A stretch of DNA of 64,000 nt, taken from assembly GCA_964016885.1 (NCBI GenBank), contig OZ024744.1:134974001-135038000 (forward strand). The letters are read 5' to 3'. Source of the stretch: Eledone cirrhosa. Lineage: Eukaryota. Made by a program: the position numbers and the translations under genes. The notes beneath the pieces were generated by a model. It was not told the DNA's origin. It did not search any database and was given only the letters and a program-made list of their open reading frames with translations. Below are positions 1-22,236 of this stretch, piece by piece (positions within the stretch are counted from its first letter, which is position 1; every line of letters starts with the position of its first letter).

Positions 1-2864
1 AGTTAAGTTGGGGTTAAGTTAAGTTGGGGTTAAGTTAAGTTGCAGTTAAGTTAAGTTGAGGTTAAGTTAAGGTGGGGTTAAGTTAAGTCGGGGTTAAGTT
101 AAGTTGTGGTTGAGTTAAGTTGGGGTTAATTTAAGTTGGGGCTAAGTTAATTTGTGGTTAAGTTAAGTTGGGGTTAAGTTAAGTTGGGGTTAAGTTAAGT
201 TGGGGTTGAGTTAAGTTGGGGTTGAGTTAATTTGGGGTTAAGTTAAGTTGGGGTTAAGTTAAGTTGGGTTTAAGTTAAGTTGGGGTTAAATTAAGTTGGG
301 GTTAAATTAAGTTGGGGTTAAGTTAAGTTGGGGGTAAGTTAAGTTAGGGGCAAGTTAAGTTGGGGTTAATTTAAGTTGGGGTTAAATTAAGTTGGGGTTA
401 CGTTAAGTTGGTGTTAAGTTAAGTTGGGGTTAATTTAAGTTGGGGTTACTTAAGTTGGGGTTAAGTTAAGTTGGGGTTAAGTTAAGTTGGGGTTAATTTA
501 AGTTGGGGTTGAGTTAAGTTGGGGTTAAGTTAAGTTGGGGTTATATTAAGTTGGGGTTAAGTTAAGTTGGGGTTCAGTTAAGTTGGGGATAAGTTAAGTT
601 GGGGTTAAGTTAAATTGGGGTTAATTAAGTTGGGGTTAAGTTAAGTTGGGGTTAAGTTAAGTTGGGGCTAAGTTAAGTTGGGGCTGAGTTAAGTTGGGTC
701 TGAGTTAAGTTGGGGTTAAGTTAATTTGGGGTTGAGTTAATTCGGGGTTAAGTTAAGTTGGGGTTAAGTTGGGGTTAAGTTAAGTTAGGTTTAAGTTAAG
801 TTGGGGTTAAGTTAAGTTGGGGTTAAGTTAAGTTGGGGTTAAGTTAAGTTGGGGTTAAGTTAAGTTGGGGTTAAGTTAATTTGTGGTTTAGTTAAGTTGG
901 GGTTAAGTTAAGTTGGGGTTAAGTTAAGTTGGGGTTAAGTTAAGTCGGGGTTAAGTTAAGTTGGGGTTAAGTTAAGTTGGGGTTAAGTTAAGTTGGGGTT
1001 AAGTTAAGTTGGGGTTAAGTTAAGTTGGGGTTAAGTTAAGTTGGGGTTAAGTTAAGTTGAGGTTAAGTTAAGTTGGGGTTAAATTAAGTTGGGGTTAAGT
1101 TAAGTTGGGGTTAAGTTAAGTTGGGGTTAAGTTAAGTTGGGGATAAGTTAAGTTGGGGATAATTTAAGTTGGGGTTAAGTTAAGTTGGGTTTAAGTTAAG
1201 TTGGGGTTAAGTTAAGTTGGGGCTAAGTTAAGTTGGGGCTGAGTTAAGTTGGAGTTAAGTTAAGTTGGGGTTAAGTTAAGTTGGGGTTAATTTAAGTTGG
1301 GGTTTATTTAAGTTGGGGTTAAGTTAAGTTGGGGTTCAGTTAAGTTGGGGTTAAGTTAAGTTGGGGTTAAGATGGGGTTAACTTAAGTTGGGGTTAAGTT
1401 AAGTTGGGGTTAAGTTAAGTTGGGGTTAAGTTAAGTTGGGGTTAAGTTAAGTCGGGGTTAAGTTAAGTCGGGGTTAAGTTAAGTTAGGGTTCAGTTAATT
1501 GGGGTTAAGTTAAGTTGGGGTTGAGTTAAGTTGGGGTTGAGTTAAATTGGGGTTGAGTTAAGTTGGGGTTGAGTTAAGTTGGTGTTGAGTTAAGTTGGGG
1601 TTAAGTTAAGTTGGGGTTAAATTAAGTTGGGGTTAAATTAAGTTGGGGTTAAGTTAAGTTGGGGGTAAGTTAAGTTGGGGGCAAGTTAAGTTGGGGTTAA
1701 TTTAAGTTGGGGTTAAATTAAGTTGGGGTTACGTTAAGTTGGTGCTAAGTTAAGTTGGGGTTAATTTAAGTTGGGGTTAATTAAGTTGGGGTTAAGTTAA
1801 GTTGGGGTTAAGTTAAGTTGGGGTTAATTTAAGTTGGGGTTGAGTTAAGTTGGGGTTAAGTTAATTTGGGGTTATATTAAGTTGGGGTTAAGTTAAGTTG
1901 GGGTTCAGTTAAGTTGGGGTTAAGTTAAGTTGGGGTTAAGTTAAGTTGAGGTTAAGTTAAGTTGGGGTTAAGTTAAGTTGGTGTTAAGTTAAGTTGGGGC
2001 TAAGTTAAGTTGGGGCTGAGTTAAGTTGGGGCTGAGTTAAGTTGGGGCTAAATTAAGTTGGGGTTGAGTTAAGTTGGGGTTAAGTTGGGGTTAAGTTAAG
2101 TTAGGTTTAAGTTAAGTTGGGGTTAAGTTAAGTTGGGGTTAAGTTAAGGTGGGGTTAAGTTAAGTTGGGGTTAAGTTAAGTTGTGGTTAAGTTAAGTTGG
2201 GGTTAATTTAAGTTGGGGTTAATTTAAGTTGGGGTTAAGTTAAGTTGGGGTTAAGTTAAGTTGGGGTAATTAAGTTGGGGTTAAGTTAAGTTGGGGATAA
2301 TTTAAGTTGGGGTTAAGTTAAGCTGGGGTTAAGTTAAGTTGGGGTTAAGTTAAGTTGGGGTTAATTTAAGTTGGGGTTAAGTTAAGTTGGGGTTAAGTTA
2401 AGTCGGGGTTAAGTTAAGTTGGGGTTAAGTTAAGTTGGGGTTAAGTTAAGTTGGGGTTAAGTTAAGTTGGTTAGTTAAGTTGAGTTTAAGTTAAGTTGGG
2501 GTTAAGTTAAGTTGGGGTTAAGTTAAGTTGGGGTTAAGTTAAGTTGGTTAGTTAAGTTGAGTTTAAGTTAAGTTGGGGTTAATTTAAGTTGGGGTTAAGT
2601 TAAGCTGGGGTTAAGTTAAGTTGGGGTTAAGTTAAGTTGGGGTTAATTTAAGTTGGGGTTAAGTTAAGTTGGGGTTAAGTTAAGTCGGGGTTAAGTTAAG
2701 TTGGGGTTAAGTTAAGTTGGGGTTAAGTTAAGTTGGGGTTAAGTTAAGTTGGTTAGTTAAGTTGAGTTTAAGTTAAGTTGGGGTTAATTTAAGTTGGGTT
2801 AAGTTAAGTTGGGGTTAAGTTAAGTTGGGGTTAAGTTAAGTTGGGGTTAAGTTAAGTTGGGGTT

Positions 2865-3039
2865 AACCCCAACTTAACTTAACCCCAACTTCACTCAACC
2901 CCAACGTAACTCAACCCCAACTTAACTTAACCCCAACTTCACTCAACCCCAAGTTAACTTAACCCCAACTTCACTCAACCCCAACTTCCAACTTGACTTA
3001 ACCCCAACTTAACTTAGCCCCAACTTAACTTAAGCCCAA
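2865..3039 (-). repeat. Inverted 175-bp satellite block, copy 1 (type A)
   Basis: About 11 AACCCCAACTTAACTT-type monomers, from GGGGTT|AACCCC to AAGCCCAA|AGTCGGGG. Carries the CCCCAAGTTAAC variant. Confidence 0.97.
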
Positions 3040-5477
3040 AGTCGGGGTTAAGTTAAGTTGGCGTTAAGTTAAAGTGGCGTTAAGTTAAGTTAGGCTTAAC
3101 TTAAGTTGGGGTTCAGTTAAGTTGGGGGTAAGTTAAGTTGGGGGTAAGTTAAGTTGGGGTTAAGTTAAGTTGCGGTTAAGTTGGGGTTAAGTTAAGTTAG
3201 GGTTAAGTTAAGTTGGGGTTGAGTTAAGTTGGGGTTAATTAAGTGGTGGTTATGTTAAGTTGGGGTTAAGTTAAGTTGGGGTTAATTTAAATTGGGGTTA
3301 AGTTAACTTTGTGGTTAAGTTAAGTTGGGGTTAAGTTAAGTTGGGGTAAAGTTGGGGTTGAGTTAAGTTGGGGTTGAGTGAAGTTGGGGTTAAGTTAAGT
3401 TGGGGTTAAGTTAAGTTGGGGTTAAGATAAGTCGGGGTTAAGTTAAGTTGTGGTTGAGTTAAGTTGGGGTTAATTTAAGTTGGGGCTAAGTTAATTTGTG
3501 GTTAAGTTAAGTTGGGGTTAAGTTAAGTTGGGGTTAAGTTAAGTTGGGTTTAAGTTAAGTTGGGGTTAAATTAAGTTGGGGTTAAATTAAGTTGGGGTTA
3601 AGTTAAGTTGGGGGTAAGTTAAGTTGGGGGCAAGTTAAGTTGGGGTTAATTTAAGTTGGGGTTAAATTAAGTTGGGGTTAAGTTAAGTTGGGGCTAAGTT
3701 AAGTTGGGGCTGAGTTAAGTTGGGGCTGAGTTAAGTTGGGGCTAAGTTAAGTTGGGGTTGAGTTAAGTTGGGGTTAAGTTGGGGTTAAGTTAAGTTAGGT
3801 TTAAGTTAAGTTGGGGTTAAGTTAAGTTGGGGTTAAGTTAAGTTGGGGTTAAGTTAAGTTGGGGTTAAGTTAAGTTGGGGTTAAGTTAAGTTGGGGTTAA
3901 GTTAAGTTGGGGTTAAGTTAATTTGTGGTTAAGTTAAGTTGTGGTTAAGTTAAGTTGGGGTTAAGTTAAGTTGGGGTTAAGTTAAGTCGGGGTTAAGTTA
4001 AGTTGGGGTTAAGTTAAGTTGGGGTTAATTAAGTTGGGGTTAAGTTAAGTTGGGGTTAAGTTAAGTTGGGGTTAATTTAAGTTGGGGTTGAGTTAAGTTG
4101 GGGTTGAGTTAAATTGGGGTTGAGTTAAGTTGGGGTTGAGTTAAGTTGGTGTTGAGTTAAGTTGGGGTTAAGTTAAGTTGGGGTTAAATTAAGTTGGGGT
4201 TAAGTTAAGTTGGGGGTAAGTTAAGTTGGGGGCAAGTTAAGTTGGGGTTAATTTAAGTTGGGGTTAAATTAAGTTGGGGTTACGTTAAGTTGGTGCTAAG
4301 TTAAGTTGGGGTTAATTTAAGTTGGGGTTAATTAAGTTGGGGTTAAGTTAAGTTGGGGTTAAGTTAAGTTGGGGTTAATTTAAGTTGGGGTTGAGTTAAG
4401 TTGGGGTTAAGTTAATTTGGGGTTATATTAAGTTGGGGTTAATTAAGTTGGGGTTCAGTTAAGTTGGGGTTAAGTTAAGTTGGGGTTAAGTTAAGTTGAG
4501 GTTAAGTTAAGTTGGGGTTAAGTTAAGTTGGTGTTAAGTTAAGTTGGGGCTAATTTAAGTTGGGGCTGAGTTAAGTTGGGGCTGAGTTAAGTTGGGGCTA
4601 AATTAAGTTGGGGTTGAGTTAAGTTGGGGTTAAGTTGGGGTTAAGTTATGTTAGGTTTAAGTTAAGTTGGGGTTAAGTTAAGTTGGGGTTAAGTTAAGTT
4701 GGGGTTAAGTTAAGTTGGGGTTAAGTTAAGTTGGGGTTAAGTTAAGTTGGTGTTAAGTTAAGTTGGGGCTAAGTTAAGTTGGGGCTGAGTTAAGTTGGGG
4801 CTGAGTTAAGTTGGGGCTAAATTAAGTTGGGGTTGAGTTAAGTTGGGGTTAAGTTGGGGTTAAGTTAAGTTAGGTTTAAGTTAAGTTGGGGTTAAGTTAA
4901 GTTGGGGTTAAGTTAAGGTGGGGTTAAGTTAAGTTGGGGTTAAGTTAAGTTGTGGTTAAGTTAAGTTGGGGTTAATTTAAGTTGGGGTTAATTTAAGTTG
5001 GGGTTAAGTTAAGTTGGGGTTAAGTTAAGTTGGGGTAATTAAGTTGGGGTTAAGTTAAGTTGGGGATAATTTAAGTTGGGGTTAAGTTAAGTTTGAGTTT
5101 AAGTTAAGTTGGGGTTAAGTTAAGTTGGGGTTAAGTTAAGTTGGGGTTAAGTTAAGTTGGTTAGTTAAGTTGAGTTTAAGTTAAGTTGGGGTTAATTTAA
5201 GTTGGGGTTAAGTTAAGCTGGGGTTAAGTTAAGTTGGGGTTAAGTTAAGTTGGGGTTAATTTAAGTTGGGGTTAAGTTAAGTTGGGGTTAAGTTAAGTCG
5301 GGGTTAAGTTAAGTTGGGGTTAAGTTAAGTTGGGGTTAAGTTAAGTTGGGGTTAAGTTAAGTTGGTTAGTTAAGTTGAGTTTAAGTTAAGTTGGGGTTAA
5401 TTTAAGTTGGGTTAAGTTAAGTTGGGGTTAAGTTAAGTTGGGGTTAAGTTAAGTTGGGGTTAAGTTAAGTTGGGGTT

Positions 5478-5652
5478 AACCCCAACTTAACTTAACCCCA
5501 ACTTCACTCAACCCCAACGTAACTCAACCCCAACTTAACTTAACCCCAACTTCACTCAACCCCAAGTTAACTTAACCCCAACTTCACTCAACCCCAACTT
5601 CCAACTTGACTTAACCCCAACTTAACTTAGCCCCAACTTAACTTAAGCCCAA
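5478..5652 (-). repeat. Inverted 175-bp satellite block, copy 2 (type A)
   Basis: Same junctions and internal variants as copy 1, including CCCCAAGTTAAC and the downstream TTAAAGTGGCG. Confidence 0.97.
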
Positions 5653-7921
5653 AGTCGGGGTTAAGTTAAGTTGGCGTTAAGTTAAAGTGGCGTTAAGTTA
5701 AGTTAGGCTTAACTTAAGTTGGGGTTCAGTTAAGTTGGGGGTAAGTTAAGTTGGGGGTAAGTTAAGTTGGGGTTAAGTTAAGTTGCGGTTAAGTTGGGGT
5801 TAAGTTAAGTTAGGGTTAAGTTAAGTTGGGGTTGAGTTAAGTTGGGGTTAATTAAGTGGTGGTTATGTTAAGTTGGGGTTAAGTTAAGTTGGGGTTAATT
5901 TAAATTGGGGTTAAGTTAACTTTGTGGTTAAGTTAAGTTGGGGTTAAGTTAAGTTGGGGTAAAGTTGGGGTTGAGTTAAGTTGGGGTTGAGTGAAGTTGG
6001 GGTTAAGTTAAGTTGGGGTTAAGTTAAGTTGGGGTTAAGATAAGTCGGGGTTAAGTTAAGTTGTGGTTGAGTTAAGTTGGGGTTAATTTAAGTTGGGGCT
6101 AAGTTAATTTGTGGTTAAGTTAAGTTGGGGTTAAGTTAAGTTGGGGTTAAGTTAAGTTGGGTTTAAGTTAAGTTGGGGTTAAATTAAGTTGGGGTTAAAT
6201 TAAGTTGGGGTTAAGTTAAGTTGGGGGTAAGTTAAGTTGGGGGCAAGTTAAGTTGGGGTTAATTTAAGTTGGGGTTAAATTAAGTTGGGGTTAAGTTAAG
6301 TTGGGGCTAAGTTAAGTTGGGGCTGAGTTAAGTTGGGGCTGAGTTAAGTTGGGGCTAAGTTAAGTTGGGGTTGAGTTAAGTTGGGGTTAAGTTGGGGTTA
6401 AGTTAAGTTAGGTTTAAGTTAAGTTGGGGTTAAGTTAAGTTGGGGTTAAGTTAAGTTGGGGTTAAGTTAAGTTGGGGTTAAGTTAAGTTGGGGTTAAGTT
6501 AAGTTGGGGTTAAGTTAAGTTGGGGTTAAGTTAATTTGTGGTTAAGTTAAGTTGTGGTTAAGTTAAGTTGGGGTTAAGTTAAGTTGGGGTTAAGTTAAGT
6601 CGGGGTTAAGTTAAGTTGGGGTTAAGTTAAGTTGGGGTTAATTAAGTTGGGGTTAAGTTAAGTTGGGGTTAAGTTAAGTTGGGGTTAATTTAAGTTGGGG
6701 TTGAGTTAAGTTGGGGTTGAGTTAAATTGGGGTTGAGTTAAGTTGGGGTTGAGTTAAGTTGGTGTTGAGTTAAGTTGGGGTTAAGTTAAGTTGGGGTTAA
6801 ATTAAGTTGGGGTTAAGTTAAGTTGGGGGTAAGTTAAGTTGGGGGCAAGTTAAGTTGGGGTTAATTTAAGTTGGGGTTAAATTAAGTTGGGGTTACGTTA
6901 AGTTGGTGCTAAGTTAAGTTGGGGTTAATTTAAGTTGGGGTTAATTAAGTTGGGGTTAAGTTAAGTTGGGGTTAAGTTAAGTTGGGGTTAATTTAAGTTG
7001 GGGTTGAGTTAAGTTGGGGTTAAGTTAATTTGGGGTTATATTAAGTTGGGGTTAATTAAGTTGGGGTTCAGTTAAGTTGGGGTTAAGTTAAGTTGGGGTT
7101 AAGTTAAGTTGAGGTTAAGTTAAGTTGGGGTTAAGTTAAGTTGGTGTTAAGTTAAGTTGGGGCTAATTTAAGTTGGGGCTGAGTTAAGTTGGGGCTGAGT
7201 TAAGTTGGGGCTAAATTAAGTTGGGGTTGAGTTAAGTTGGGGTTAAGTTGGGGTTAAGTTATGTTAGGTTTAAGTTAAGTTGGGGTTAAGTTAAGTTGGG
7301 GTTAAGTTAAGTTGGGGTTAAGTTAAGTTGGGGTTAAGTTAAGTTGGGGTTAAGTTAATTTGTGGTTAAGTTAAGTTGTGGTTAAGTTAAGTTGGGGTTA
7401 AGTTAAGTTGGGGTTAATTTAAGTTGGGGTTAAGTTAAGTTGGGGTTAAGTTAAGTTGGGGTTAAGTTAAGTTGGGGTTAAGTTAAGTTGGGGATAATTT
7501 AAGTTGGGGTTAAGTTAAGTTTGAGTTTAAGTTAAGTTGGGGTTAAGTTAAGTTGGGGTTAAGTTAAGTTGGGGTTAAGTTAAGTTGGGGTTAAGTTAAG
7601 TTGGTTAGTTAAGTTGAGTTTAAGTTAAGTTGGGGTTAATTTAAGTTGGGGTTAAGTTAAGCTGGGGTTAAGTTAAGTTGGGGTTAAGTTAAGTTGGGGT
7701 TAATTTAAGTTGGGGTTAAGTTAAGTTGGGGTTAAGTTAAGTCGGGGTTAAGTTAAGTTGGGGTTAAGTTAAGTTGGGGTTAAGTTAAGTTGGGGTTAAG
7801 TTAAGTTGGTTAGTTAAGTTGAGTTTAAGTTAAGTTGGGGTTAATTTAAGTTGGGTTAAGTTAAGTTGGGGTTAAGTTAAGTTGGGGTTAAGTTAAGTTG
7901 GGGTTAAGTTAGGTTGGGGTT

Positions 7922-8096
7922 AACCCCAACTTAACTTAACCCCAACTTCACTCAACCCCAACGTAACTCAACCCCAACTTAACTTAACCCCAACTTCACT
8001 CAAGCCTAACTTAACTTAACCCCAACTTCACTCAACCCCAACTTCCAACTTGACTTAACCCCAACTTAACTTAGGCCCAACTTAACTTAAGCCCAA
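7922..8096 (-). repeat. Inverted 175-bp satellite block, copy 3 (type B)
   Basis: Same junctions. Preceded by TTAGGTTGGGG, with internal CAAGCCTAAC and TTAGGCCC variants. Confidence 0.97.
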
Positions 8097-10658
8097 AGTC
8101 GGGGTTAAGTTAAGTTGGCGTTAAGTTAAGTTGGCGTTAAGTTAAGTTAGGCTTAACTTAAGTTGGGGTTCAGTTAAGTTGGGGGTAAGTTAAGTTGGGG
8201 TTAAGTTAAGTTAGGGTTAAGTTAAGTTGGGGTTGAGTTAAGTTGGGGTTAATTAAGTGGTGGTTATGTTAAGTTGGGGTTAAGTTAAGTTGGGGTTAAT
8301 TTAAATTGGGGTTAAGTTAACTTTGTGGTTAAGTTAAGTTGGGGTTAAGTTAAGTTGGGGTAAAGTTGGGGTTGAGTTAAGTTGGGGTTGAGTGAAGTTG
8401 GGGTTAAGTTAAGTTGGGGTTAAGTTAAGTTGGGGTTAAGATAAGTCGGGGTTAAGTTAAGTTGTGGTTGAGTTAAGTTGGGGTTAATTTAAGTTGGGGC
8501 TAAGTTAATTTGTGGTTAAGTTAAGTTGGGGTTAAGTTAAGTTGGGGTTAAGTTAAGTTGGGGTTGAGTTAAGTTGGGGCTGAGTTAATTTGGGTTTAAG
8601 TTAAGTTGGGGTTAAGTTAAGTTGGGTTTAAGTTAAGTTGGGGTTAAATTAAGTTGGGGTTAAATTAAGTTGGGGTTAAGTTAAGTTGGGGGTAAGTTAA
8701 GTTGGGGGCAAGTTAAGTTGGGGTTAATTTAAGTTGGGGTTAAATTAAGTTGGGGTTACGTTAAGTTGGTGTTAAGTTAAGTTGGGGTTAATTTAAGTTG
8801 GGGTTAATTAAGTTGGGGTTAAGTTAAGTTGGGGTTAAGTTAAGTTGGGGTTAATTTAAGTTGGGGTTGAGTTAAGTTGGGGTTAAGTTAAGTTGGGGTT
8901 ATATTAAATTGGGGTTAAGTTAAGTTGGGGTTCAGTTAAGTTGGGGTTAAGTTAAGTTGGGGTTAAGTTAAGTTGAGGTTAAGTTAAGTTGGGGTTAAGT
9001 TAAGTTGGTGTTAAGTTAAGTTGGGGCTAAGTTAAGTTGGGGCTGAGTTAAGTTGGGGCTGAGTTAAGTTGGGGCTAAGTTAAGTTGGGGTTGAGTTAAG
9101 TTGGGGTTAAGTTGGGGTTAAGTTAAGTTAGGTTTAAGTTAAGTTGGGGTTAAGTTAAGTTGGGGTTAAGTTAAGTTGGGGTTAAGTTAAGTTGGGGTTA
9201 AGTTAAGTTGGGGTTAAGTTAAGTTGGGGTTAAGTTAAGTTGGGTTAAGTTAATTTGTGGTTAAGTTAAGTTGTGGTTAAGTTAAGTTGGGGTTAAGTTA
9301 AGTTGGGGTTAAGTTAAGTCGGGGTTAAGTTAAGTTGGGGTTAAGTTAAGTTGGGGTTAATTAAGTTGGGGTTAAGTTAAGTTGGGGTTAAGTTAAGTTG
9401 GGGTTAATTTAAGTTGGGGTTGAGTTAAGTTGGGGTTGAGTTAAATTGGGGTTGAGTTAAGTTGGGGTTGAGTTAAGTTGGTGTTGAGTTAAGTTGGGGT
9501 TAAGTTAAGTTGGGGTTAAATTAAGTTGGGGTTAAATTAAGTTGGGGTTAATTTAAGTTGGGGGTAAGTTAAGTTGGGGGCAAGTTAAGTTGGGGTTAAT
9601 TTAAGTTGGGGTTAAATTAAGTTGGGGTTACGTTAAGTTGGTGCTAAGTTAAGTTGGGGTTAATTTAAGTTGGGGTTAATTAAGTTGGGGTTAAGTTAAG
9701 TTGGGGTTAAGTTAAGTTGGGGTTAATTTAAGTTGGGGTTGAGTTAAGTTGGGGTTAAGTTAATTTGGGGTTATATTAAGTTGGGGTTAAGTTAAGTTGG
9801 GGTTCAGTTAAGTTGGGGTTAAGTTAAGTTGGGGTTAAGTTAAGTTGAGGTTAAGTTAAGTTGGGGTTAAGTTAAGTTGGTGTTAAGTTAAGTTGGGGCT
9901 AAGTTAAGTTGGGGCTGAGTTAAGTTGGGGCTGAGTTAAGTTGGGGCTAAATTAAGTTGGGGTTGAGTTAAGTTGGGGTTAAGTTGGGGTTAAGTTATGT
10001 TAGGTTTAAGTTAAGTTGGGGTTAAGTTAAGTTGGGGTTAAGTTAAGTTGGGGTTAAGTTAAGTTGGGGTTAAGTTAAGTTGGGGTTAAGTTAAGTTGGG
10101 GTTAAGTTAATTTGTGGTTAAGTTAAGTTGTGGTTAAGTTAAGTTGGGGTTAAGTTAAGTTGGGGTTAATTTAAGTTGGGGTTAAGTTAAGTTGGGGTTA
10201 AGTTAAGTTGGGGTTAAGTTAAGTTGGGGTTAAGTTAAGTTGGGGATAATTTAAGTTGGGGTTAAGTTAAGTTTGAGTTTAAGTTAAGTTGGGGTTAAGT
10301 TAAGTTGGGGTTAAGTTAAGTTGGGGTTAAGTTAAGTTGGTTAGTTAAGTTGAGTTTAAGTTAAGTTGGGGTTAATTTAAGTTGGGGTTAAGTTAAGCTG
10401 GGGTTAAGTTAAGTTGGGGTTAAGTTAAGTTGGGGTTAATTTAAGTTGGGGTTAAGTTAAGTTGGGGTTAAGTTAAGTCGGGGTTAAGTTAAGTTGGGGT
10501 TAAGTTAAGTTGGGGTTAAGTTAAGTTGGGGTTAAGTTAAGTTGGTTAGTTAAGTTGAGTTTAAGTTAAGTTGGGGTTAATTTAAGTTGGGGTTAAGTTA
10601 AGTTGGGGTTAAGTTAAGTTGGGGTTAAGTTAAGTTGGGGTTAAGTTAAGTTGGGGTT

Positions 10659-10833
10659 AACCCCAACTTAACTTAACCCCAACTTCACTCAACCCCAACG
10701 TAACTCAACCCCAACTTAACTTAACCCCAACTTCACTCAACCCCAACTTAACTTAACCCCAACTTCACTCAACCCCAACTTCCAACTTGACTTAACCCCA
10801 ACTTAACTTAGCCCCAACTTAACTTAAGCCCAA
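10659..10833 (-). repeat. Inverted 175-bp satellite block, copy 4 (type C, consensus)
   Basis: Same junctions, consensus internal sequence. Confidence 0.97.
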
Positions 10834-13800
10834 AGTCGGGGTTAAGTTAAGTTGGCGTTAAGTTAAGTTGGCGTTAAGTTAAGTTAGGCTTAACTTAAGT
10901 TGGGGTTCAGTTAAGTTGGGGGTAAGTTAAGTTGGGGTTCAGTTAAGTTAGGGTTAAGTTAAGTTGGGGTTGAGTTAAGTTGGGGTTAATTAAGTGGTGG
11001 TTATGTTAAGTTGGGGTTAAGTTAAGTTGGGGTTAATTTAAATTGGGGTTAAGTTAACTTTGTGGTTAAGTTAAGTTGGGGTTAAGTTAAGTTGGGGTTC
11101 AGTTAAGTTGGGGTTCAGTTAAGTTGGGGTTAAGTTAAGTTGGGGTTGAGTTAAGTTGGGGTTGAGTTAAATTGGGGTTGAGTTAAGTTGGGGTTGAGTT
11201 AAGTTGGTGTTGAGTTAAGTTGGGGTTAAGTTAAGTTGGGGTTAAGTTAAGTTGCAGTTAAGTTAAGTTGAGGTTAAGTTAAGGTGGGGTTAAGTTAAGT
11301 CGGGGTTAAGTTAAGTTGTGGTTGAGTTAAGTTGGGGTTAATTTAAGTTGGGGCTAAGTTAATTTGTGGTTAAGTTAAGTTGGGGTTAAGTTAAGTTGGG
11401 GTTAAGTTAAGTTGGGGTTGAGTTAAGTTGGGGTTGAGTTAATTTGGGGTTAAGTTAAGTTGGGGTTAAGTTAAGTTGGGTTTAAGTTAAGTTGGGGTTA
11501 AATTAAGTTGGGGTTAAATTAAGTTGGGGTTAAGTTAAGTTGGGGGTAAGTTAAGTTAGGGGCAAGTTAAGTTGGGGTTAATTTAAGTTGGGGTTAAATT
11601 AAGTTGGGGTTACGTTAAGTTGGTGTTAAGTTAAGTTGGGGTTAATTTAAGTTGGGGTTACTTAAGTTGGGGTTAAGTTAAGTTGGGGTTAAGTTAAGTT
11701 GGGGTTAATTTAAGTTGGTGTTGAGTTAAGTTGGGGTTAAGTTAAGTTGGGGTTATATTAAGTTGGGGTTAAGTTAAGTTGGGGTTCAGTTAAGTTGGGG
11801 ATAAGTTAAGTTGGGGTTAAGTTAAATTGGGGTTAATTAAGTTGGGGTTAAGTTAAGTTGGGGTTAAGTTAAGTTGGGGCTAAGTTAAGTTGGGGCTGAG
11901 TTAAGTTGGGTCTGAGTTAAGTTGGGGTTAAGTTAATTTGGGGTTGAGTTAATTCGGGGTTAAGTTAAGTTGGGGTTAAGTTGGGGTTAAGTTAAGTTAG
12001 GTTTAAGTTAAGTTGGGGTTAAGTTAAGTTGGGGTTAAGTTAAGTTGGGGTTAAGTTAAGTTGGGGTTAAGTTAAGTTGGGGTTAAGTTAATTTGTGGTT
12101 TAGTTAAGTTGGGGTTAAGTTAAGTTGGGGTTAAGTTAAGTTGGGGTTAAGTTAAGTTGGGGTTAAGTTAAGTTGGGGATAAGTTAAGTTGGGGATAATT
12201 TAAGTTGGGGTTAAGTTAAGTTGGGGTTAAGTTAAGTCGGGGTTAAGTTAAGTCGGGGTTAAGTTAAGTTGGGGTTAAGTTAAGTTGGGGTTAAGTTAAG
12301 TTGGGGTTAAGTTAAGTTGGGGTTAAGTTAAGTTGGGGTTAAGTTAAGTTGGGGTTAAGTTAAGTTGAGGTTAAGTTAAGTTGGGGTTAAATTAAGTTGG
12401 GGTTAAGTTAAGTTGGGGTTAAGTTAAGTTGGGGTTAAGTTAAGTTGGGGATAAGTTAAGTTGGGGATAATTTAAGTTGGGGTTAAGTTAAGTTGGGTTT
12501 AAGTTAAGTTGGGGTTAAGTTAAGTTGGGGCTAAGTTAAGTTGGGGCTGAGTTAAGTTGGGGTTAAGTTAAGTTGGGGGCAAGTTAAGTTGGGGTTAATT
12601 TAAGTTGGGGTTTATTTAAGTTGGGGTTAAGTTAAGTTGGGGTTCAGTTAAGTTGGGGTTAAGTTAAGTTGGGGTTAAGATGGGGTTAAATTAAGTTGGG
12701 GTTAAGTTAAGTTGGGGTTAAGTTAAGTTGGGGTTAAGTTAAGTTGGGGTTAAGTTAAGTCGGGGTTAAGTTAAGTCGGGGTTAAGTTAAGTTAGGGTTC
12801 AGTTAATTGGGGTTAAGTTAAGTTGGGGTTGAGTTAAGTTGGGGTTGAGTTAAATTGGGGTTGAGTTAAGTTGGGGTTGAGTTAAGTTGGTGTTGAGTTA
12901 AGTTGGGGTTAAGTTAAGTTGGGGTTAAATTAAGTTGGGGTTAAATTAAGTTGGGGTTAAGTTAAGTTGGGGGTAAGTTAAGTTGGGGGCAAGTTAAGTT
13001 GGGGTTAATTTAAGTTGGGGTTAAATTAAGTTGGGGTTACGTTAAGTTGGTGCTAAGTTAAGTTGGGGTTAATTTAAGTTGGGGTTAATTAAGTTGGGGT
13101 TAAGTTAAGTTGGGGTTAAGTTAAGTTGGGGTTAATTTAAGTTGGGGTTGAGTTAAGTTGGGGTTAAGTTAATTTGGGGTTATATTAAGTTGGGGTTAAG
13201 TTAAGTTGGGGTTCAGTTAAGTTGGGGTTAAGTTAAGTTGGGGTTAAGTTAAGTTGAGGTTAAGTTAAGTTGGGGTTAAGTTAAGTTGGTGTTAAGTTAA
13301 GTTGGGGCTAAGTTAAGTTGGGGCTGAGTTAAGTTGGGGCTGAGTTAAGTTGGGGCTAAATTAAGTTGGGGTTGAGTTAAGTTGGGGTTAAGTTGGGGTT
13401 AAGTTAAGTTAGGTTTAAGTTAAGTTGGGGTTAAGTTAAGTTGGGGTTAAGTTAAGGTGGGGTTAAGTTAAGTTGGGGTTAAGTTAAGTTGTGGTTAAGT
13501 TAAGTTGGGGTTAATTTAAGTTGGGGTTAATTTAAGTTGGGGTTAAGTTAAGTTAGGGTTAAGTTAAGTTGGGGTAATTAAGTTGGGGTTAAGTTAAGTT
13601 GGGGATAATTTAAGTTGGGGTTAAGTTAAGTTTGAGTTTAAGTTAAGTTGGGGTTAAGTTAAGTTGGGGTTAAGTTAAGTTGGGGTTAAGTTAAGTTGGT
13701 TAGTTAAGTTGAGTTTAAGTTAAGTTGGGGTTAATTTAAGTTGGGGTTAAGTTAAGCTGGGGTTAAGTTAAGTTGGGGTTAAGTTAAGTTGGGGTTAATT

Positions 13801-14016
13801 TAAGTTGGGGTTAAGTTAAGTTGGGGTTAAGTTAAGTCGGGGTTAAGTTAAGTTGGGGTTAAGTTAAGTTGGGGTTAAGTTAAGTTGGGGTTAAGTTAAG
13901 TTGGTTAGTTAAGTTGAGTTTAAGTTAAGTTGGGGTTAATTTAAGTTGGGTTAAGTTAAGTTGGGGTTAAGTTAAGTTGGGGTTAAGTTAAGTTGGGGTT
14001 AAGTTAAGTTGGGGTT

Positions 14017-14191
14017 AACCCCAACTTAACTTAACCCCAACTTCACTCAACCCCAACGTAACTCAACCCCAACTTAACTTAACCCCAACTTCACTCAACC
14101 CCAAGTTAACTTAACCCCAACTTCACTCAACCCCAACTTCCAACTTGACTTAACCCCAACTTAACTTAGCCCCAACTTAACTTAAGCCCAA
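14017..14191 (-). repeat. Inverted 175-bp satellite block, copy 5 (type A)
   Basis: CCCCAAGTTAAC variant and downstream TTAAAGTGGCG, as in copies 1 and 2. Confidence 0.97.
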
Positions 14192-16605
14192 AGTCGGGGT
14201 TAAGTTAAGTTGGCGTTAAGTTAAAGTGGCGTTAAGTTAAGTTAGGCTTAACTTAAGTTGGGGTTCAGTTAAGTTGGGGGTAAGTTAAGTTGGGGGTAAG
14301 TTAAGTTGGGGTTAAGTTAAGTTGCGGTTAAGTTGGGGTTAAGTTAAGTTAGGGTTAAGTTAAGTTGGGGTTGAGTTAAGTTGGGGTTAATTAAGTGGTG
14401 GTTATGTTAAGTTGGGGTTAAGTTAAGTTGGGGTTAATTTAAATTGGGGTTAAGTTAACTTTGTGGTTAAGTTAAGTTGGGGTTAAGTTAAGTTGGGGTA
14501 AAGTTGGGGTTGAGTTAAGTTGGGGTTGAGTGAAGTTGGGGTTAAGTTAAGTTGGGGTTAAGTTAAGTTGGGGTTAAGATAAGTCGGGGTTAAGTTAAGT
14601 TGTGGTTGAGTTAAGTTGGGGTTAATTTAAGTTGGGGCTAAGTTAATTTGTGGTTAAGTTAAGTTGGGGTTAAGTTAAGTTGGGGTTCAGTTAAGTTGGG
14701 GTTGAGTTAAGTTGGGTCTGAGTTAATTTGGGTTTAAGTTAAGTTGGGGTTAAGTTAAGTTGGGTTTAAGTTAAGTTGGGGTTAAATTAAGTTGGGGTTA
14801 AATTAAGTTGGGGTTAAGTTAAGTTGGGGGTAAGTTAAGTTGGGGGCAAGTTAAGTTGGGGTTAATTTAAGTTGGGGTTAAATTAAGTTGGGGTTAAGTT
14901 AAGTTGGGGCTAAGTTAAGTTGGGGCTGAGTTAAGTTGGGGCTGAGTTAAGTTGGGGCTAAGTTAAGTTGGGGTTGAGTTAAGTTGGGGTTAAGTTGGGG
15001 TTAAGTTAAGTTAGGTTTAAGTTAAGTTGGGGTTAAGTTAAGTTGGGGTTAAGTTAAGTTGGGGTTAAGTTAAGTTGGGGTTAAGTTAAGTTGGGGTTAA
15101 GTTAAGTTGGGGTTAAGTTAAGTTGGGGTTAAGTTAATTTGTGGTTAAGTTAAGTTGTGGTTAAGTTAAGTTGGGGTTAAGTTAAGTTGGGGTTAAGTTA
15201 AGTCGGGGTTAAGTTAAGTTGGGGTTAAGTTAAGTTGGGGTTAATTAAGTTGGGGTTAAGTTAAGTTGGGGTTAAGTTAAGTTGGGGTTAATTTAAGTTG
15301 GGGTTGAGTTAAGTTGGGGTTGAGTTAAATTGGGGTTGAGTTAAGTTGGGGTTGAGTTAAGTTGGTGTTGAGTTAAGTTGGGGTTAAGTTAAGTTGGGGT
15401 TAAATTAAGTTGGGGTTAAATTAAGTTGGGGTTAAGTTAAGTTGGGGGTAAGTTAAGTTGGGGGCAAGTTAAGTTGGGGTTAATTTAAGTTGGGGTTAAA
15501 TTAAGTTGGGGTTACGTTAAGTTGGTGCTAAGTTAAGTTGGGGTTAATTTAAGTTGGGGTTAATTAAGTTGGGGTTAAGTTAAGTTGGGGTTAAGTTAAG
15601 TTGGGGTTAATTTAAGTTGGGGTTGAGTTAAGTTGGGGTTAAGGTAATTTGGGGTTATATTAAGTTGGGGTTAAGTTAAGTTGGGGTTCAGTTAAGTTGG
15701 GGTTAAGTTAAGTTGGGGTTAAGTTAAGTTGAGGTTAAGTTAAGTTGGGGTTAAGTTAAGTTGGTGTTAAGTTAAGTTGGGGCTAATTTAAGTTGGGGCT
15801 GAGTTAAGTTGGGGCTGAGTTAAGTTGGGGCTAAATTAAGTTGGGGTTGAGTTAAGTTGGGGTTAAGTTGGGGTTAAGTTATGTTAGGTTTAAGTTAAGT
15901 TGGGGTTAAGTTAAGTTGGGGTTAAGTTAAGTTGGGGTTAAGTTAAGTTGGGGTTAAGTTAAGTTGGGGTTAAGTTAATTTGTGGTTAAGTTAAGTTGTG
16001 GTTAAGTTAAGTTGGGGTTAAGTTAAGTTGGGGTTAATTTAAGTTGGGGTTAAGTTAAGTTGGGGTTAAGTTAAGTTGGGGTTAAGTTAAGTTGGGGTTA
16101 AGTTAAGTTGGGGATAATTTAAGTTGGGGTTAAGTTAAGTTTGAGTTTAAGTTAAGTTGGGGTTAAGTTAAGTTGGGGTTAAGTTAAGTTGGGGTTAAGT
16201 TAAGTTGGGGTTAAGTTAAGTTGGTTAGTTAAGTTGAGTTTAAGTTAAGTTGGGGTTAATTTAAGTTGGGGTTAAGTTAAGCTGGGGTTAAGTTAAGTTG
16301 GGGTTAAGTTAAGTTGGGGTTAATTTAAGTTGGGGTTAAGTTAAGCTGGGGTTAAGTTAAGTTGGGGTTAAGTTAAGTTGGGGTTAATTTAAGTTGGGGT
16401 TAAGTTAAGTTGGGGTTAAGTTAAGTCGGGGTTAAGTTAAGTTGGGGTTAAGTTAAGTTGGGGTTAAGTTAAGTTGGGGTTAAGTTAAGTTGGTTAGTTA
16501 AGTTGAGTTTAAGTTAAGTTGGGGTTAATTTAAGTTGGGTTAAGTTAAGTTGGGGTTAAGTTAAGTTGGGGTTAAGTTAAGTTGGGGTTAAGTTAGGTTG
16601 GGGTT

Positions 16606-16780
16606 AACCCCAACTTAACTTAACCCCAACTTCACTCAACCCCAACGTAACTCAACCCCAACTTAACTTAACCCCAACTTCACTCAAGCCCAACTTAACT
16701 TAACCCCAACTTCACTCAACCCCAACTTCCAACTTGACTTAACCCCAACTTAACTTAGCCCCAACTTAACTTAAGCCCAA
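16606..16780 (-). repeat. Inverted 175-bp satellite block, copy 6 (type B)
   Basis: Preceded by TTAGGTTGGGG. The internal CAAGCC variant is shared with copy 3. Confidence 0.97.
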
Positions 16781-19342
16781 AGTCGGGGTTAAGTTAAGTT
16801 GGCGTTAAGTTAAGTTGGCGTTAAGTTAAGTTAGGCTTAACTTAAGTTGGGGTTCAGTTAAGTTGGGGGTAAGTTAAGTTGGGGTTAAGTTAAGTTAGGG
16901 TTAAGTTAAGTTGGGGTTGAGTTAAGTTGGGGTTAATTAAGTGGTGGTTATGTTAAGTTGGGGTTAAGTTAAGTTGGGGTTAATTTAAATTGGGGTTAAG
17001 TTAACTTTGTGGTTAAGTTAAGTTGGGGTTAAGTTAAGTTGGGGTAAAGTTGGGGTTGAGTTAAGTTGGGGTTGAGTGAAGTTGGGGTTAAGTTAAGTTG
17101 GGGTTAAGTTAAGTTGGGGTTAAGATAAGTCGGGGTTAAGTTAAGTTGTGGTTGAGTTAAGTTGGGGTTAATTTAAGTTGGGGCTAAGTTAATTTGTGGT
17201 TAAGTTAAGTTGGGGTTAAGTTAAGTTGGGGTTAAGTTAAGTTGGGGTTGATTTAAGTTGGGGCTGAGTTAATTTGGGTTTAAGTTAAGTTGGGGTTAAG
17301 TTAAGTTGGGTTTAAGTTAAGTTGGGGTTAAATTAAGTTGGGGTTAAATTAAGTTGGGGTTAAGTTAAGTTGGGGGTAAGTTAAGTTGGGGGCAAGTTAA
17401 GTTGGGGTTAATTTAAGTTGGGGTTAAATTAAGTTGGGGTTACGTTAAGTTGGTGTTAAGTTAAGTTGGGGTTAATTTAAGTTGGGGTTAATTAAGTTGG
17501 GGTTAAGTTAAGTTGGGGTTAAGTTAAGTTGGGGTTAATTTAAGTTGGGGTTGAGTTAAGTTGGGGTTAAGTTAAGTTGGGGTTATATTAAATTGGGGTT
17601 AAGTTAAGTTGGGGTTCAGTTAAGTTGGGGTTAAGTTAAGTTGGGGTTAAGTTAAGTTGAGGTTAAGTTAAGTTGGGGTTAAGTTAAGTTGGTGTTAAGT
17701 TAAGTTGGGGCTAAGTTAAGTTGGGGCTGAGTTAAGTTGGGGCTGAGTTAAGTTGGGGCTAAGTTAAGTTGGGGTTGAGTTAAGTTGGGGTTAAGTTGGG
17801 GTTAAGTTAAGTTAGGTTTAAGTTAAGTTGGGGTTAAGTTAAGTTGGGGTTAAGTTAAGTTGGGGTTAAGTTAAGTTGGGGTTAAGTTAAGTTGGGGTTA
17901 AGTTAAGTTGGGGTTAAGTTAAGTTGGGTTAAGTTAATTTGTGGTTAAGTTAAGTTGTGGTTAAGTTAAGTTGGGGTTAAGTTAAGTTGGGGTTAAGTTA
18001 AGTCGGGGTTAAGTTAAGTTGGGGTTAAGTTAAGTTGGGGTTAATTAAGTTGGGGTTAAGTTAAGTTGGGGTTAAGTTAAGTTGGGGTTAATTTAAGTTG
18101 GGGTTGAGTTAAGTTGGGGTTGAGTTAAATTGGGGTTGAGTTAAGTTGGGGTTGAGTTAAGTTGGTGTTGAGTTAAGTTGGGGTTAAGTTAAGTTGGGGT
18201 TAAATTAAGTTGGGGTTAAATTAAGTTGGGGTTAATTTAAGTTGGGGGTAAGTTAAGTTGGGGGCAAGTTAAGTTGGGGTTAATTTAAGTTGGGGTTAAA
18301 TTAAGTTGGGGTTACGTTAAGTTGGTGCTAAGTTAAGTTGGGGTTAATTTAAGTTGGGGTTAATTAAGTTGGGGTTAAGTTAAGTTGGGGTTAAGTTAAG
18401 TTGGGGTTAATTTAAGTTGGGGTTGAGTTAAGTTGGGGTTAAGTTAATTTGGGGTTATATTAAGTTGGGGTTAAGTTAAGTTGGGGTTCAGTTAAGTTGG
18501 GGTTAAGTTAAGTTGGGGTTAAGTTAAGTTGAGGTTAAGTTAAGTTGGGGTTAAGTTAAGTTGGTGTTAAGTTAAGTTGGGGCTAAGTTAAGTTGGGGCT
18601 GAGTTAAGTTGGGGCTGAGTTAAGTTGGGGCTAAATTAAGTTGGGGTTGAGTTAAGTTGGGGTTAAGTTGGGGTTAAGTTATGTTAGGTTTAAGTTAAGT
18701 TGGGGTTAAGTTAAGTTGGGGTTAAGTTAAGTTGGGGTTAAGTTAAGTTGGGGTTAAGTTAAGTTGGGGTTAAGTTAAGTTGGGGTTAAGTTAATTTGTG
18801 GTTAAGTTAAGTTGTGGTTAAGTTAAGTTGGGGTTAAGTTAAGTTGGGGTTAATTTAAGTTGGGGTTAAGTTAAGTTGGGGTTAAGTTAAGTTGGGGTTA
18901 AGTTAAGTTGGGGTTAAGTTAAGTTGGGGATAATTTAAGTTGGGGTTAAGTTAAGTTTGAGTTTAAGTTAAGTTGGGGTTAAGTTAAGTTGGGGTTAAGT
19001 TAAGTTGGGGTTAAGTTAAGTTGGTTAGTTAAGTTGAGTTTAAGTTAAGTTGGGGTTAATTTAAGTTGGGGTTAAGTTAAGCTGGGGTTAAGTTAATTTG
19101 GGGTTAAGTTAAGTTGGGGTTAATTTAAGTTGGGGTTAAGTTAAGTTGGGGTTAAGTTAAGTCGGGGTTAAGTTAAGTTGGGGTTAAGTTAAGTTGGGGT
19201 TAAGTTAAGTTGGGGTTAAGTTAAGTTGGTTAGTTAAGTTGAGTTTAAGTTAAGTTGGGGTTAATTTAAGTTGGGGTTAAGTTAAGTTGGGGTTAAGTTA
19301 AGTTGGGGTTAAGTTAAGTTGGGGTTAAGTTAAGTTGGGGTT

Positions 19343-19517
19343 AACCCCAACTTAACTTAACCCCAACTTCACTCAACCCCAACGTAACTCAACCCCAACT
19401 TAACTTAACCCCAACTTCACTCAACCCCAACTTAACTTAACCCCAACTTCACTCAACCCCAACTTCCAACTTGACTTAACCCCAACTTAACTTAGCCCCA
19501 ACTTAACTTAAGCCCAA
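19343..19517 (-). repeat. Inverted 175-bp satellite block, copy 7 (type C)
   Basis: Same junctions, consensus internal sequence. Lies 2737 bp after copy 6, as copy 4 does after copy 3. Confidence 0.97.
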
Positions 19518-22061
19518 AGTCGGGGTTAAGTTAAGTTGGCGTTAAGTTAAGTTGGCGTTAAGTTAAGTTAGGCTTAACTTAAGTTGGGGTTCAGTTAAGT
19601 TGGGGGTAAGTTAAGTTGGGGTTAAGTTAAGTTAGGGTTAAGTTAAGTTGGGGTTGAGTTAAGTTGGGGTTAATTAAGTGGTGGTTATGTTAAGTTGGGG
19701 TTAAGTTAAGTTGGGGTTAATTTAAATTGGGGTTAAGTTAACTTTGTGGTTAAGTTAAGTTGGGGTTAAGTTAAGTTGGGGTAAAGTTGGGGTTGAGTTA
19801 AGTTGGGGTTGAGTGAAGTTGGGGTTAAGTTAAGTTGGGGTTAAGTTAAGTTGGGGTTAAGATAAGTCGGGGTTAAGTTAAGTTGTGGTTGAGTTAAGTT
19901 GGGGTTAATTTAAGTTGGGGCTAAGTTAATTTGTGGTTAAGTTAATTTGGGGTTAAGTTAAGTTTGGGTTAAGTTAAGTTGGGGTTGAGTTAAGTTGGGG
20001 CTGAGTTAATTTGGGTTTAAGTTAAGTTGGGGTTAAGTTAAGTTGGGTTTAAGTTAAGTTGGGGTTAAATTAAGTTGGGGTTAAATTAAGTTGGGGTTAA
20101 GTTAAGTTGGGGGTAAGTTAAGTTGGGGGCAGGTTAAGTTGGGGTTAATTTAAGTTGGGGTTAAATTAAGTTGGGGTTACGTTAAGTTGGTGTTAAGTTA
20201 AGTTGGGGTTAATTTAAGTTGGGGTTAATTAAGTTGGGGTTAAGTTAAGTTGGGGTTAAGTTAAGTTGGGGTTAATTTAAGTTGGGGTTGAGTTAAGTTG
20301 GGGTTAAGTTAAGTTGGGGTTATATTAAGTTGGGGTTAAGTTAAGTTGGGGTTCAGTTAAGTTGGGGTTAAGTTAAGTTGGGGTTAAGTTAAGTTGAGGT
20401 TAAGTTAAGTTGGGGCTAAGTTAAGTTGGGGCTGAGTTAAGTTGGGGCTGAGTTAAGTTGGGGCTAAGTTAAGTTGGGGTTGAGTTAAGTTGGGGTTAAG
20501 TTGGGGTTAAGTTAAGTTAGGTTTAAGTTAAGTTGGGGTTAAGTTAAGTTGGGGTTAAGTTAAGTTGGGGTTAAGTTAAGTTGGGGTTAAGTTAATTTGT
20601 GGTGAAGTTAAGTTGTGGTTAAGTTAAGTTGGGGTTAAGTTAAGTTGGGGTTAATTTAAGTCGGGGTTAAGTTAAGTTGGGGTTAAGTTAAGTTGGGGTT
20701 AATTTAAGTTGGGGTTAAGTTAAGTTGGGGTTAAGTTAAGTTGGGGTTAAGTTAAGTCGGGGTTAAGTTAAGTTGGGGTTAAGTTAAGTTGGGGTTAATT
20801 TAAGTTGGGGTTAAGTTAAGTTGGGGTTAAGTTAAGTTGGGGTTAAGTTAAGTTGGGGTTAAGTTAAGTTGGGGATAATTTAAGTTGGGGTTTATTTTAG
20901 TTGGGGTTAAGTTAAGTTGGGGTTCAGTTAAGTTGGGGTTAAGTTAAGTTGGGGTTAAGATGGGGTTAAATTAAGTTGGGGTTAAGTTAAGTTGGGGTTA
21001 AGTTAAGTTGGGGTTAAGTTAAGTTGGGGTTAAGTTAAGTCGGGGTTAAGTTAAGTCGGGGTTAAGTTAAGTTAGGGTTCAGTTAAGTTGGGGTTAAGTT
21101 AAGTTGGGGTTAAGTTAAGTTGGGGTTAAGTTAAGTTGAGGTTAAGTTAAGTTGGGGTTAAGTTAAGTTGGTGTTAAGTTAAGTTGGGGCTAAGTTAAGT
21201 TGGGGCTGAGTTAAGTTGGGGCTGAGTTAAGTTGGGGCTAAGTTAAGTTGGGGTTGAGTTAAGTTGGGGTTAAGTTGGGGTTAAGTTAAGTTAGGTTTAA
21301 GTTAAGTTGGGTTTAAGTTAAGTTGGGGTTAAGTTAAGTTTGGGTTAAGTTAAGTTGGGGTTAAGTTAAGTTGGGGTTAAGTTAAGTTGGGGTTAAGTTA
21401 ATTTGTGGTTAAGTTAAGTTGTGGTTAAGTTAAGTTGGGGTTAAGTTAAGTTGGGGTTAAGTTAAGTCGGGGTTAAGTTTAGTTGGGGTTAAGTTAAGTT
21501 GGGGTTAAGTTAAGTTGGGGTTAAGTTAAGTTGGGGTTAAGTTAAGTCGGGGTTAAGTTAAGTTGGGGTTAAGTTAAGTTGGGGTTAATTTAAGTTGGGG
21601 TTAAGTTAAGTTGGGGTTAAGTTAAGTTGGGGTTAAGTTAAGTTGGGGTTAAGTTAAGTTGGGGATAATTTAAGTTGGGGTTAAGTTAAGTTTGAGTTTA
21701 AGTTAAGTTGGGGTTAAGTTAAGTTGGGGTTAAGTTAAGTTGGGGTTAAGTTAAGTTGGTTAGTTAAGTTGAGTTTAAGTTAAGTTGGGGTTAATTTAAG
21801 TTGGGGTTAAGTTAAGCTGGGGTTAAGTTAAGTTGGGGTTAAGTTAAGTTGGGGTTAATTTAAGTTGGGGTTAAGTTAAGTTGGGGTTAAGTTAAGTCGG
21901 GGTTAAGTTAAGTTGGGGTTAAGTTAAGTTGGGGTTAAGTTAAGTTGAGGTTAAGTTAAGTTGGTTAGTTAAGTTGAGTTTAAGTTAAGTTGGGGTTAAT
22001 TTAAGTTGGGGTTAAGTTAAGTTGGGGTTAAGTTAAGTTGGGGTTAAGTTAAGTTGGGGTT

Positions 22062-22236
22062 AACCCCAACTTAACTTAACCCCAACTTCACTCAACCCCA
22101 ACGTAACTCAACCCCAACTTAACTTAACCCCAACTTCACTCAACCCCAACTTAACTTAACCCCAACTTCACTCAACCCCAACTTCCAACTTGACTTAACC
22201 CCAACTTAACTTAGCCCCAACTTAACTTAAGCCCAA
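22062..22236 (-). repeat. Inverted 175-bp satellite block, copy 8
   Basis: Consensus block. The right flank keeps only one GGCG monomer before switching context. Confidence 0.97.

Follow-up and report, generated by a model that had tools for sequence, protein, structure and literature searches.

The window, by which we mean the whole 64,000-bp stretch of Eledone cirrhosa DNA analysed here (G000:C28:134,974,001-135,038,000, in a genome of 3.0 Gb), consists entirely of a 16-bp satellite in which short cassettes of monomers lie in inverted orientation. Where the first cassette begins, at 2838-2891, there is a perfect palindrome of 54 bp without a spacer. In the explanation that we consider likely, this palindrome marks the head-to-head end of a single old inverted cassette, which arose from a probable strand switch at the TTAA of the monomer; duplicated since then along with the higher-order units of the array, it is now estimated to occupy ~930 places, in which it seems mostly to be a stable passenger.

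The palindrome equals its own reverse complement, its 27-bp arms meeting between 2864 and 2865. Its recurrence at every cassette, with shorter perfect arms in copies 3, 6 and 10, had been predicted from the letters alone and was borne out. Spacerless palindromes with arms of at least 6 bp number exactly 11 in the window (arms of 27 bp in eight, 25 bp in one and 9 bp in two), all others having arms of 5 bp or less. The perfect arm stops at the first private variant of the cassette. Two further claims of the original prediction stood in part. Imperfect pairing over more than 100 bp was found, ungapped, in 3 of the 11 copies, but in copy 1 the ungapped arm is only ~66-69 bp long (at 94%), with pairing resuming past a 1-base bulge. 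The centre, described as AT-rich, does comprise four AT bases (TTAA), but these are flanked by runs of G and of C, and the central 12 bp are 67% G+C.

One junction and its descendants

An orientation-aware parse of 1.418 Mb of C28 yielded 300 head-to-head and 306 tail-to-tail junctions. Among the former, 285 had the same register, 13 were the same junction after a 1-base loss in an arm and 2 were new, so that 298 of the 300 represent one type. The exact 26-bp core of this junction occurs 679 times genome-wide and was matched by 219 of the 300 sampled junctions, from which we estimate ~930 copies. Among the matches listed, the cores start on C28, and as far as listed they are confined to this one chromosome.

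The cassettes behind these junctions are homologous inside and have fixed boundaries, with a variable number of inner repeats (lengths mostly 124-425 bp and at most 527 bp in the sampled cassettes). We counted 130 distinct cassette sequences among 241 copies, which nest into subfamilies marked by variants of their own; amplification extended to subfamilies whose centres are broken. Both junctions are constant across 10 Mb. Since all copies share both junctions and differ only in the length of the interior, they descend from a single event that was amplified by duplication. Eleven independent fold-backs are ruled out by private variants common to the copies. A balanced two-break inversion is likewise excluded, because the tail-to-tail junction is not the reciprocal partner that such an inversion predicts. 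No cassette was present in any of six 10-kb samples taken at C28 127.0-130.0 Mb.

The hairpin formed by the palindrome stands far apart from shuffled DNA (z -9.4), with predicted single-strand stabilities of -28 kcal/mol for 54 nt and -66 kcal/mol for 138 nt. Shuffled DNA is the wrong null for a palindrome in a tandem repeat, because every strand switch in the repeat creates a long quasi-palindrome whose loop does not exceed 8 nt. This was so for all 256 joins of consensus monomers, 24 of which were spacerless and 11 centred on TTAA. When pairs of array sites were joined at random in phase (100,000 draws, 3,801 sites), the perfect arm had a median of 6 bp and reached 27 bp or more in 7% of the draws. 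Perfect arms were thereby shown to follow from the in-phase joining of near-consensus monomers. Homogenisation of one arm by the other found no support as their source, only 4 of 1,374 differences being mirrored (a count in which ~5 of 243 rows are short forward pieces miscalled as cassettes, excluded from the later counts).

Origin of the strand switch

The arms of the palindrome have no diagnostic variants in common, and its origin was therefore read from sibling events. These were sought with genome-wide gapped patterns for other registers and in fetched DNA; the patterns required exact arms of 10-11 bp and skipped the gap lengths of the main junctions, and switches beside variant monomers may be missed. 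Four new switches were found, namely both ends of a cassette on C18, C28:131,964,582 and C28:132,859,242, all of them spacerless and centred on the second TTAA of the monomer. Four of five independent switches free of register bias are thus spacerless and TTAA-centred, against 11/256 (4.3%) expected (P ~2e-5). The fifth is the tail-to-tail junction of the palindrome cassette itself, which is not TTAA-centred; the count leaves out the palindrome junction and a further TTAA junction at C28:130,474,808, a deletion across a tail-to-tail junction, both of which were found by register-specific means. Stem deletions of the palindrome were ruled out as a source of the second-TTAA junctions, which are located outside cassettes.

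The cassette on C18 is 140 bp long, young and present in three copies (C18:10,129,121, 10,132,221 and 10,188,797). Among 6,321 C18 monomers, two rare variants (2 and 3 occurrences) are restricted to its left flank and, mirrored, to its interior. Its second junction shows a 4-bp microhomology, and the forward array rejoins in register. This cassette is a local fold-back copy of its own flank. It fits the fold-back inverted insertions described at yeast break sites, in which one junction lies at an inverted microhomology, the other has 0-5 bp and the inserts reach ~150 bp (PMC11724301). The palindrome cassette has the 4-bp TTAA at its priming junction and 1 bp at the second, within the yeast range, but a mirror to the flank is undetectable at this old junction. 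The yeast example given there also involves 10-bp repeats and a 41-nt loop, whereas the palindrome junction is spacerless with a 4-bp core. In origin-dependent inverted-repeat amplification (ODIRA), too, an inverted segment lies between direct ones, with junctions at short inverted repeats of 2-14 bp. As described, however, it prefers a spacing of 40-80 bp and has both flanks copying the inverted segment (PMC10766183), and we rejected an ODIRA triplication since these features are absent from the palindrome cassette and from that on C18. A Penelope-type fold-back was discarded as well, there being no foreign sequence at either junction.

We infer that the switching chemistry of the siblings also operated at the palindrome junction. 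There is a good probability that a 3' end in TTAA would have re-annealed in reverse and been extended by a polymerase, through fold-back or microhomology-mediated template switching; the second junction would be a blunt-type join with 1 bp of microhomology. The origin originally proposed, fold-back or template switching at the self-complementary TTAA, thus gains support from the sibling events, although a local fold-back cannot be detected at this junction. Several points weigh against it. The arms lack shared diagnostic variants, as the few mirrored differences given above indicate, and left-mirror tests on the cassette flanks were not significant. None was convincing among 42 of 125 distinct cassettes, nor among 9 of 27 long ones at three settings, which were picked post hoc. 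The palindrome is centred on the first TTAA, whereas the second, with agreement between the strands at 8 of 10 bases, was used by all four siblings. Finally, the singleton events are known from the assembly alone.

The ends of the array bear on the order of events. The palindrome also forms its distal end, C28:135,347,800. Behind it lies a stub, ~330 bp of monomers in reverse whose variants succeed one another as in the long cassettes, and this stub runs into an older, related satellite of 26-32 bp in the same orientation. The same palindrome and stub, reversed, stand at C28:124,599,686, at the start of a piece at 124.6 Mb. Since the array end carries palindrome and stub, the palindrome may be the original edge of the array. 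With perhaps slightly better than an even chance, it would first have been the outer edge, and a copy closed by the second junction would later have been captured inside. The data do not polarise the edge-first and interior-first orders, a further point to be set against our account.

Under the interior-first order, a single inverted templated insertion within the array would have created the cassette together with its two junctions, and the terminal stubs would be later products of exchange between a cassette and the older satellite. We regard this as possible but rather unlikely. The C18 cassette is such a one-step insertion, after which the forward array is back in register; the forward register at the palindrome cassette is kept save for 3-4 bases, and 21 of 56 long cassettes carry the same variant on both arms of the second junction, in monomers 5 and 6. 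The two-junction anatomy is also that of the yeast fold-back insertions of 2-150 bp described in PMC11724301. Yet, testing the second junction for mirroring gave no significant result (p 0.04-0.70, 27 tests), and the stub is found at two array ends belonging to different subfamilies, with the old satellite in the orientation of the stub and starting near the position that the second junction has in cassettes. The older satellite, degenerate and resembling the 16-mer, extends from C28:135,347,800 onward and over C28:124,590,000-124,599,686, and it is a possible parent of the 16-bp monomer.

Turnover of the array and later use of the cassettes

The original prediction also held that the palindromes may drive breakage and remodelling of the array. 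In this view, each would extrude a cruciform or hairpin, which MRN/CtIP or resolvases would cut, and the breaks would drive recombination in the array. The predicted hairpin is indeed stable, and spacerless palindromes are described as targets of MRX/Sae2 in yeast (PMC8053094). We nevertheless find this explanation improbable, and conclude that the palindrome is likely a passenger rather than the main breaking point of the array.

Breakpoints were assessed in two contiguous regions (264 and 200 kb), which were parsed into monomers and matched greedily to earlier sequence. The first 15% of each region and ambiguity intervals of more than 25 monomers were dropped before counting, which reduced the jumps from 614 to 495 and the slips from 100 to 84. 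Jumps lay within 48 bp to the left of a centre in 12.4 of 495 cases (2.5%), with 7.3 expected. After matching for the length of consensus runs, 12.2 jumps were observed beside the palindrome against 8.6 expected (1.4-fold, P=0.16), and the clustering of unit breakpoints near cassettes that had been anticipated was thus not significant. Power of detection was full, 15 planted events being recovered as 11-17 in eight trials. Inside cassettes there were 8.4 jumps for 35.4 expected, exchange between near-identical cassettes being invisible, and more than 4 kb from any cassette there were 100 for 81 expected, so that cassette-free DNA turns over as fast.

Other measures agreed with a passenger. Ranked among 58 control marker sides, linkage to the left flank came at the 22nd percentile. 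None of the 300 junctions had a register-changing deletion at the centre, and a genome-wide search for shortened centres returned a single case, the loss of 1 base from a homopolymer. Distinct variants per 16 bp numbered 13 at the centre (the first 16 bp on each side) and 13-23 further out. The absence of cassettes from all the samples taken between 127 and 130 Mb also speaks against a driver.

Some observations, however, point the other way. Monomer slips beside the palindrome numbered 9.0 against 2.1 expected (x4.3), though not necessarily as independent events. Of the two flanks the left is the looser, a left-flank marker at 3-12 monomers being kept in 153 of 238 copies and a right-flank marker at 2-6 monomers in 212 of 238. 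Three of four events that removed a single junction took the palindrome. Exchange between the arms, seen in 2 of 271 copies, and an insertion that leaves a cassette 33-41 bp before the centre, near the base of the stem, would also suit a driver. Mild hairpin-linked slippage at the palindrome may occur; it is compatible with the other results because whole-monomer deletions would rebuild the same junction and be visible only as slips. The run beside the palindrome has 5 length alleles and a heterozygosity of 0.70, which exceeds the values at the 7 other loci with a modal length of 3 and falls in the range spanned by the 9 with a modal length of 4.

Compared with known fragile palindromes, the palindromic AT-rich repeats (PATRRs; PMC7999016) and the Alu and IS50 palindromes of yeast, for which a spacer threshold of <9 nt is reported (PMC8053094), the Eledone palindrome is similarly spacerless and has a stable predicted hairpin. 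The yeast constructs described had arms of 320 bp to 2.7 kb, whereas here the perfect arms are 27 bp long and those of 89-94% extend over 66-114 bp, so that long near-identical arms are missing. In addition, its core is rich in G+C, unlike the AT-rich centre of the PATRRs (PMC7999016), and it displays neither register-changing central deletions nor a significant breakpoint cluster, while slips beside it are raised and arm exchange occurs.

Turnover would very probably run on in-register exchange between direct repeats, with cassette events playing a minor part. In this assembly, rare later events were nonetheless seen to use the cassette, by arm exchange, by the deletion across its other junction mentioned above and by two inverted insertions. 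The two exchanges across the centre are at C28:130,478,318, where cassette-specific monomers are now in the left arm and gone from the right, and at C28:132,065,773, where a block of the left flank is located in the cassette arm. Short template switches between the arms of inverted repeats reportedly homogenise the arms and invert the spacer, and the two arm exchanges fit such switching. One subfamily has its palindrome and ~145 bp of cassette replaced by 0.7-2.9 kb of an AT-rich satellite; blocks of AT-rich satellite of this size lie within the array at C28 132.05-132.79 Mb and 124.63-124.64 Mb.

The smaller inverted insertion, C28:132,857,196-132,859,242, is a templated insert of 2,046 bp that starts at a new TTAA switch, crosses an old tail-to-tail junction and tracks the cassette, leaving it 33-41 bp before the centre of the palindrome, after which the forward array resumes with a target duplication of ~5 monomers. 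The larger one is a reversed block that starts at a new TTAA switch (C28:131,964,582) and ends two monomers inside a cassette (C28:133,355,376). In intact units a few kb distant, the forward flanks of these two sites lie next to each other, and all samples from C28 132.80-133.35 Mb are reversed, with best matches mostly at 133.65-133.80 Mb. The two sites are probably the ends of one inverted insertion of at least 0.56 Mb, the size and order of which are provisional because two scaffold gaps (131.987 and 132.794 Mb) and a duplicated 23-kb piece intervene. A simple crossover between cassette and array, our earlier explanation of the reversed block, was replaced once its two flanks were found to join. 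Beyond the second gap, from C28:132,793,744 onward, the contig starts with a short telomere-like repeat and continues into low-complexity sequence, probably of low quality.

Both large events found have this anatomy. We tentatively suggest that a short self-complementary word in the monomer sets the sites of switching and that cassettes are built-in U-turns, which return reversed strands to the forward direction. If this is true, a strand reversed at TTAA copies backwards for kilobases to more than 0.5 Mb and regains its direction via a cassette, and hundreds of inherited cassettes license large inverted insertions without acting as break sites.

The array, comparable systems and implications

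Sampling places the array between C28 ~127.0 and 135.348 Mb (~8 Mb, on a scaffold of 136.5 Mb), and ~15% of it was read. Divergence from the consensus is 5.3% array-wide. The cassettes of the window (Table 1), 11 in number and 174 bp each, are confined to its first 33 kb, at irregular spacings of 1.2-5.8 kb. Over the whole window (1-64000) the strands are strongly asymmetric (GC skew ~0.94), and four consecutive G recur every 16 bases.

Table 1. Coordinates, within the window, of the array, the palindromes and the inverted cassettes
Feature	Position	Strand	Description
16-bp satellite array, G-rich strand on +	1..64000	+	~4,035 monomers, 39% exact consensus, irregular kilobase higher-order units
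Palindrome, head-to-head junction of cassette 1	2838..2891		Centre in the first TTAA of the monomer (after the G run), 4-bp microhomology
Inverted cassette 1, 174 bp	2865..3038	-	~11 monomers; its own variants are mirrored in neither flank
Tail-to-tail junction of cassette 1	3034..3047		1-bp microhomology, 2-nt loop at consensus level, not TTAA-centred
Copy 2	5451..5651	-	Palindrome 5451-5504 (27-bp arms), cassette 5478-5651
Copy 3	7913..8095	-	Palindrome 7913-7930 (9-bp arms; point change in left arm), cassette 7922-8095
Copy 4	10632..10832	-	Palindrome 10632-10685, cassette 10659-10832
Copy 5	13990..14190	-	Palindrome 13990-14043, cassette 14017-14190
Copy 6	16597..16779	-	Palindrome 16597-16614 (9-bp arms), cassette 16606-16779
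Copy 7	19316..19516	-	Palindrome 19316-19369, cassette 19343-19516
Copy 8	22035..22235	-	Palindrome 22035-22088, cassette 22062-22235; unit breakpoint in right flank
Copy 9	23241..23441	-	Palindrome 23241-23294, cassette 23268-23441; different left flank
Copy 10	26854..27052	-	Palindrome 26854-26903 (25-bp arms), cassette 26879-27052
Copy 11	32609..32809	-	Palindrome 32609-32662, cassette 32636-32809; last interior cassette seen before the array end
Cassette-free half of the window	32819..64000	+	Internal control for breakpoint density

A reversed piece of the array is found at C28 124.60-124.69 Mb. One cassette subfamily occurs in opposite orientations, between gaps, in this piece and at C28 131.99-132.79 Mb, which may reflect haplotype contigs that were duplicated or put in the wrong place. 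C18 carries another array of this satellite, most of the sampled part being without cassettes. At C2:209.196-209.36 Mb the 16-mer is part of a composite satellite of ~520 bp, made of ~250 bp of 16-mer and ~270 bp of other sequence. The same 231-bp array of the 16-mer lies within a repeated non-satellite element at L009:7581-7811 and C28:124,692,840-124,693,071, which suggests carriage by a dispersed repeat. Three sequencing runs of one sample contain 34-38% of the words, and no RNA run was among the matches listed. A literature search with one rotation of the monomer gave no paper, and among the papers listed by other searches no title or abstract opening named the satellite.

The Eledone junction is an amplified satellite strand switch, of a kind known from Tribolium and human arrays: orientation switches inside the array, the junction is conserved, and the boundaries are fixed around a variable interior. 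In Tribolium madens, the satellites TmSat1 and TmSat2 are reported to contain amplified conserved inversion sites, macro-dyad symmetries and cassettes, for which a function has been proposed (PMC13081366). As here, the switches lie inside megabase arrays, with cassettes of fixed boundaries and variable inner repeat number, and thousands of near-identical inversion sites are described there. In contrast to Eledone, the published account of Tribolium describes kilobase arms, degenerate subunits at the junctions, looped predicted hairpins and a presence on all chromosomes. The inverted arm in Eledone is mostly 124-425 bp, its junction is perfect and spacerless, and it lies on one chromosome among the matches listed; with 174 bp in the window and at most 527 bp in the sampled cassettes, it falls short of a macro-dyad in the strict Tribolium sense of kilobase arms on both sides. 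Human beta-satellite and HSat3 arrays are reported to have hundreds of switches each, which scale with length and are read as by-products of expansion (bioRxiv 10.64898/2026.07.22.740206). The accessible part of that report gives no junction sequences, microhomology or ancestry, whereas here one amplified event and five later ones were resolved, with a bias to TTAA.

Another possibility that we considered is selection for dyad symmetry, the cassettes serving to organise centromeric or heterochromatic chromatin, as put forward for Tribolium (PMC13081366). In its favour, hundreds of copies retain the palindrome, divergence within 16 bp of the centre on either side is 1.5-3%, compared with the array-wide value given above, and the arms have a median of 25 bp, where random joins give 6 bp. 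Shared descent accounts for this similarity, however, and distinct variants are not clearly fewer at the centre than elsewhere. Cassettes are missing from megabases of the array and from most of what was sampled of the C18 array, their spacing is irregular and subfamilies with broken centres were amplified as well. Selection of this type thus appears very improbable, and our breakpoint tests, unlike the functional proposal for Tribolium, point to a passenger. The feature is junk-DNA architecture, with no function shown. Least credible of all is an artefact of fold-back chimeric reads: the analysis does rest on the assembly, in which scaffold gaps occur and one piece is duplicated (114 of 151 150-mers recur), but the many distinct cassette sequences, their nested subfamilies with private variants and the constancy of both junctions do not fit it, nor do arms that, unlike those of a chimera, are not mirrors of each other.

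The origin of strand switches in satellites is debated, as is whether the resulting dyad symmetries are harmful, functional or neutral, a function being proposed for Tribolium and a by-product of expansion for human arrays in the reports cited. The Eledone array adds base-level evidence from an unrelated 3-Gb animal genome, in which new switches fall on the TTAA of the monomer. One junction was multiplied ~900-fold here without erosion of its centre, and the conservation of inversion sites can therefore stem from shared descent alone. These ~900 copies constitute a natural series in which to follow the behaviour of a 54-bp spacerless palindrome in heterochromatin.

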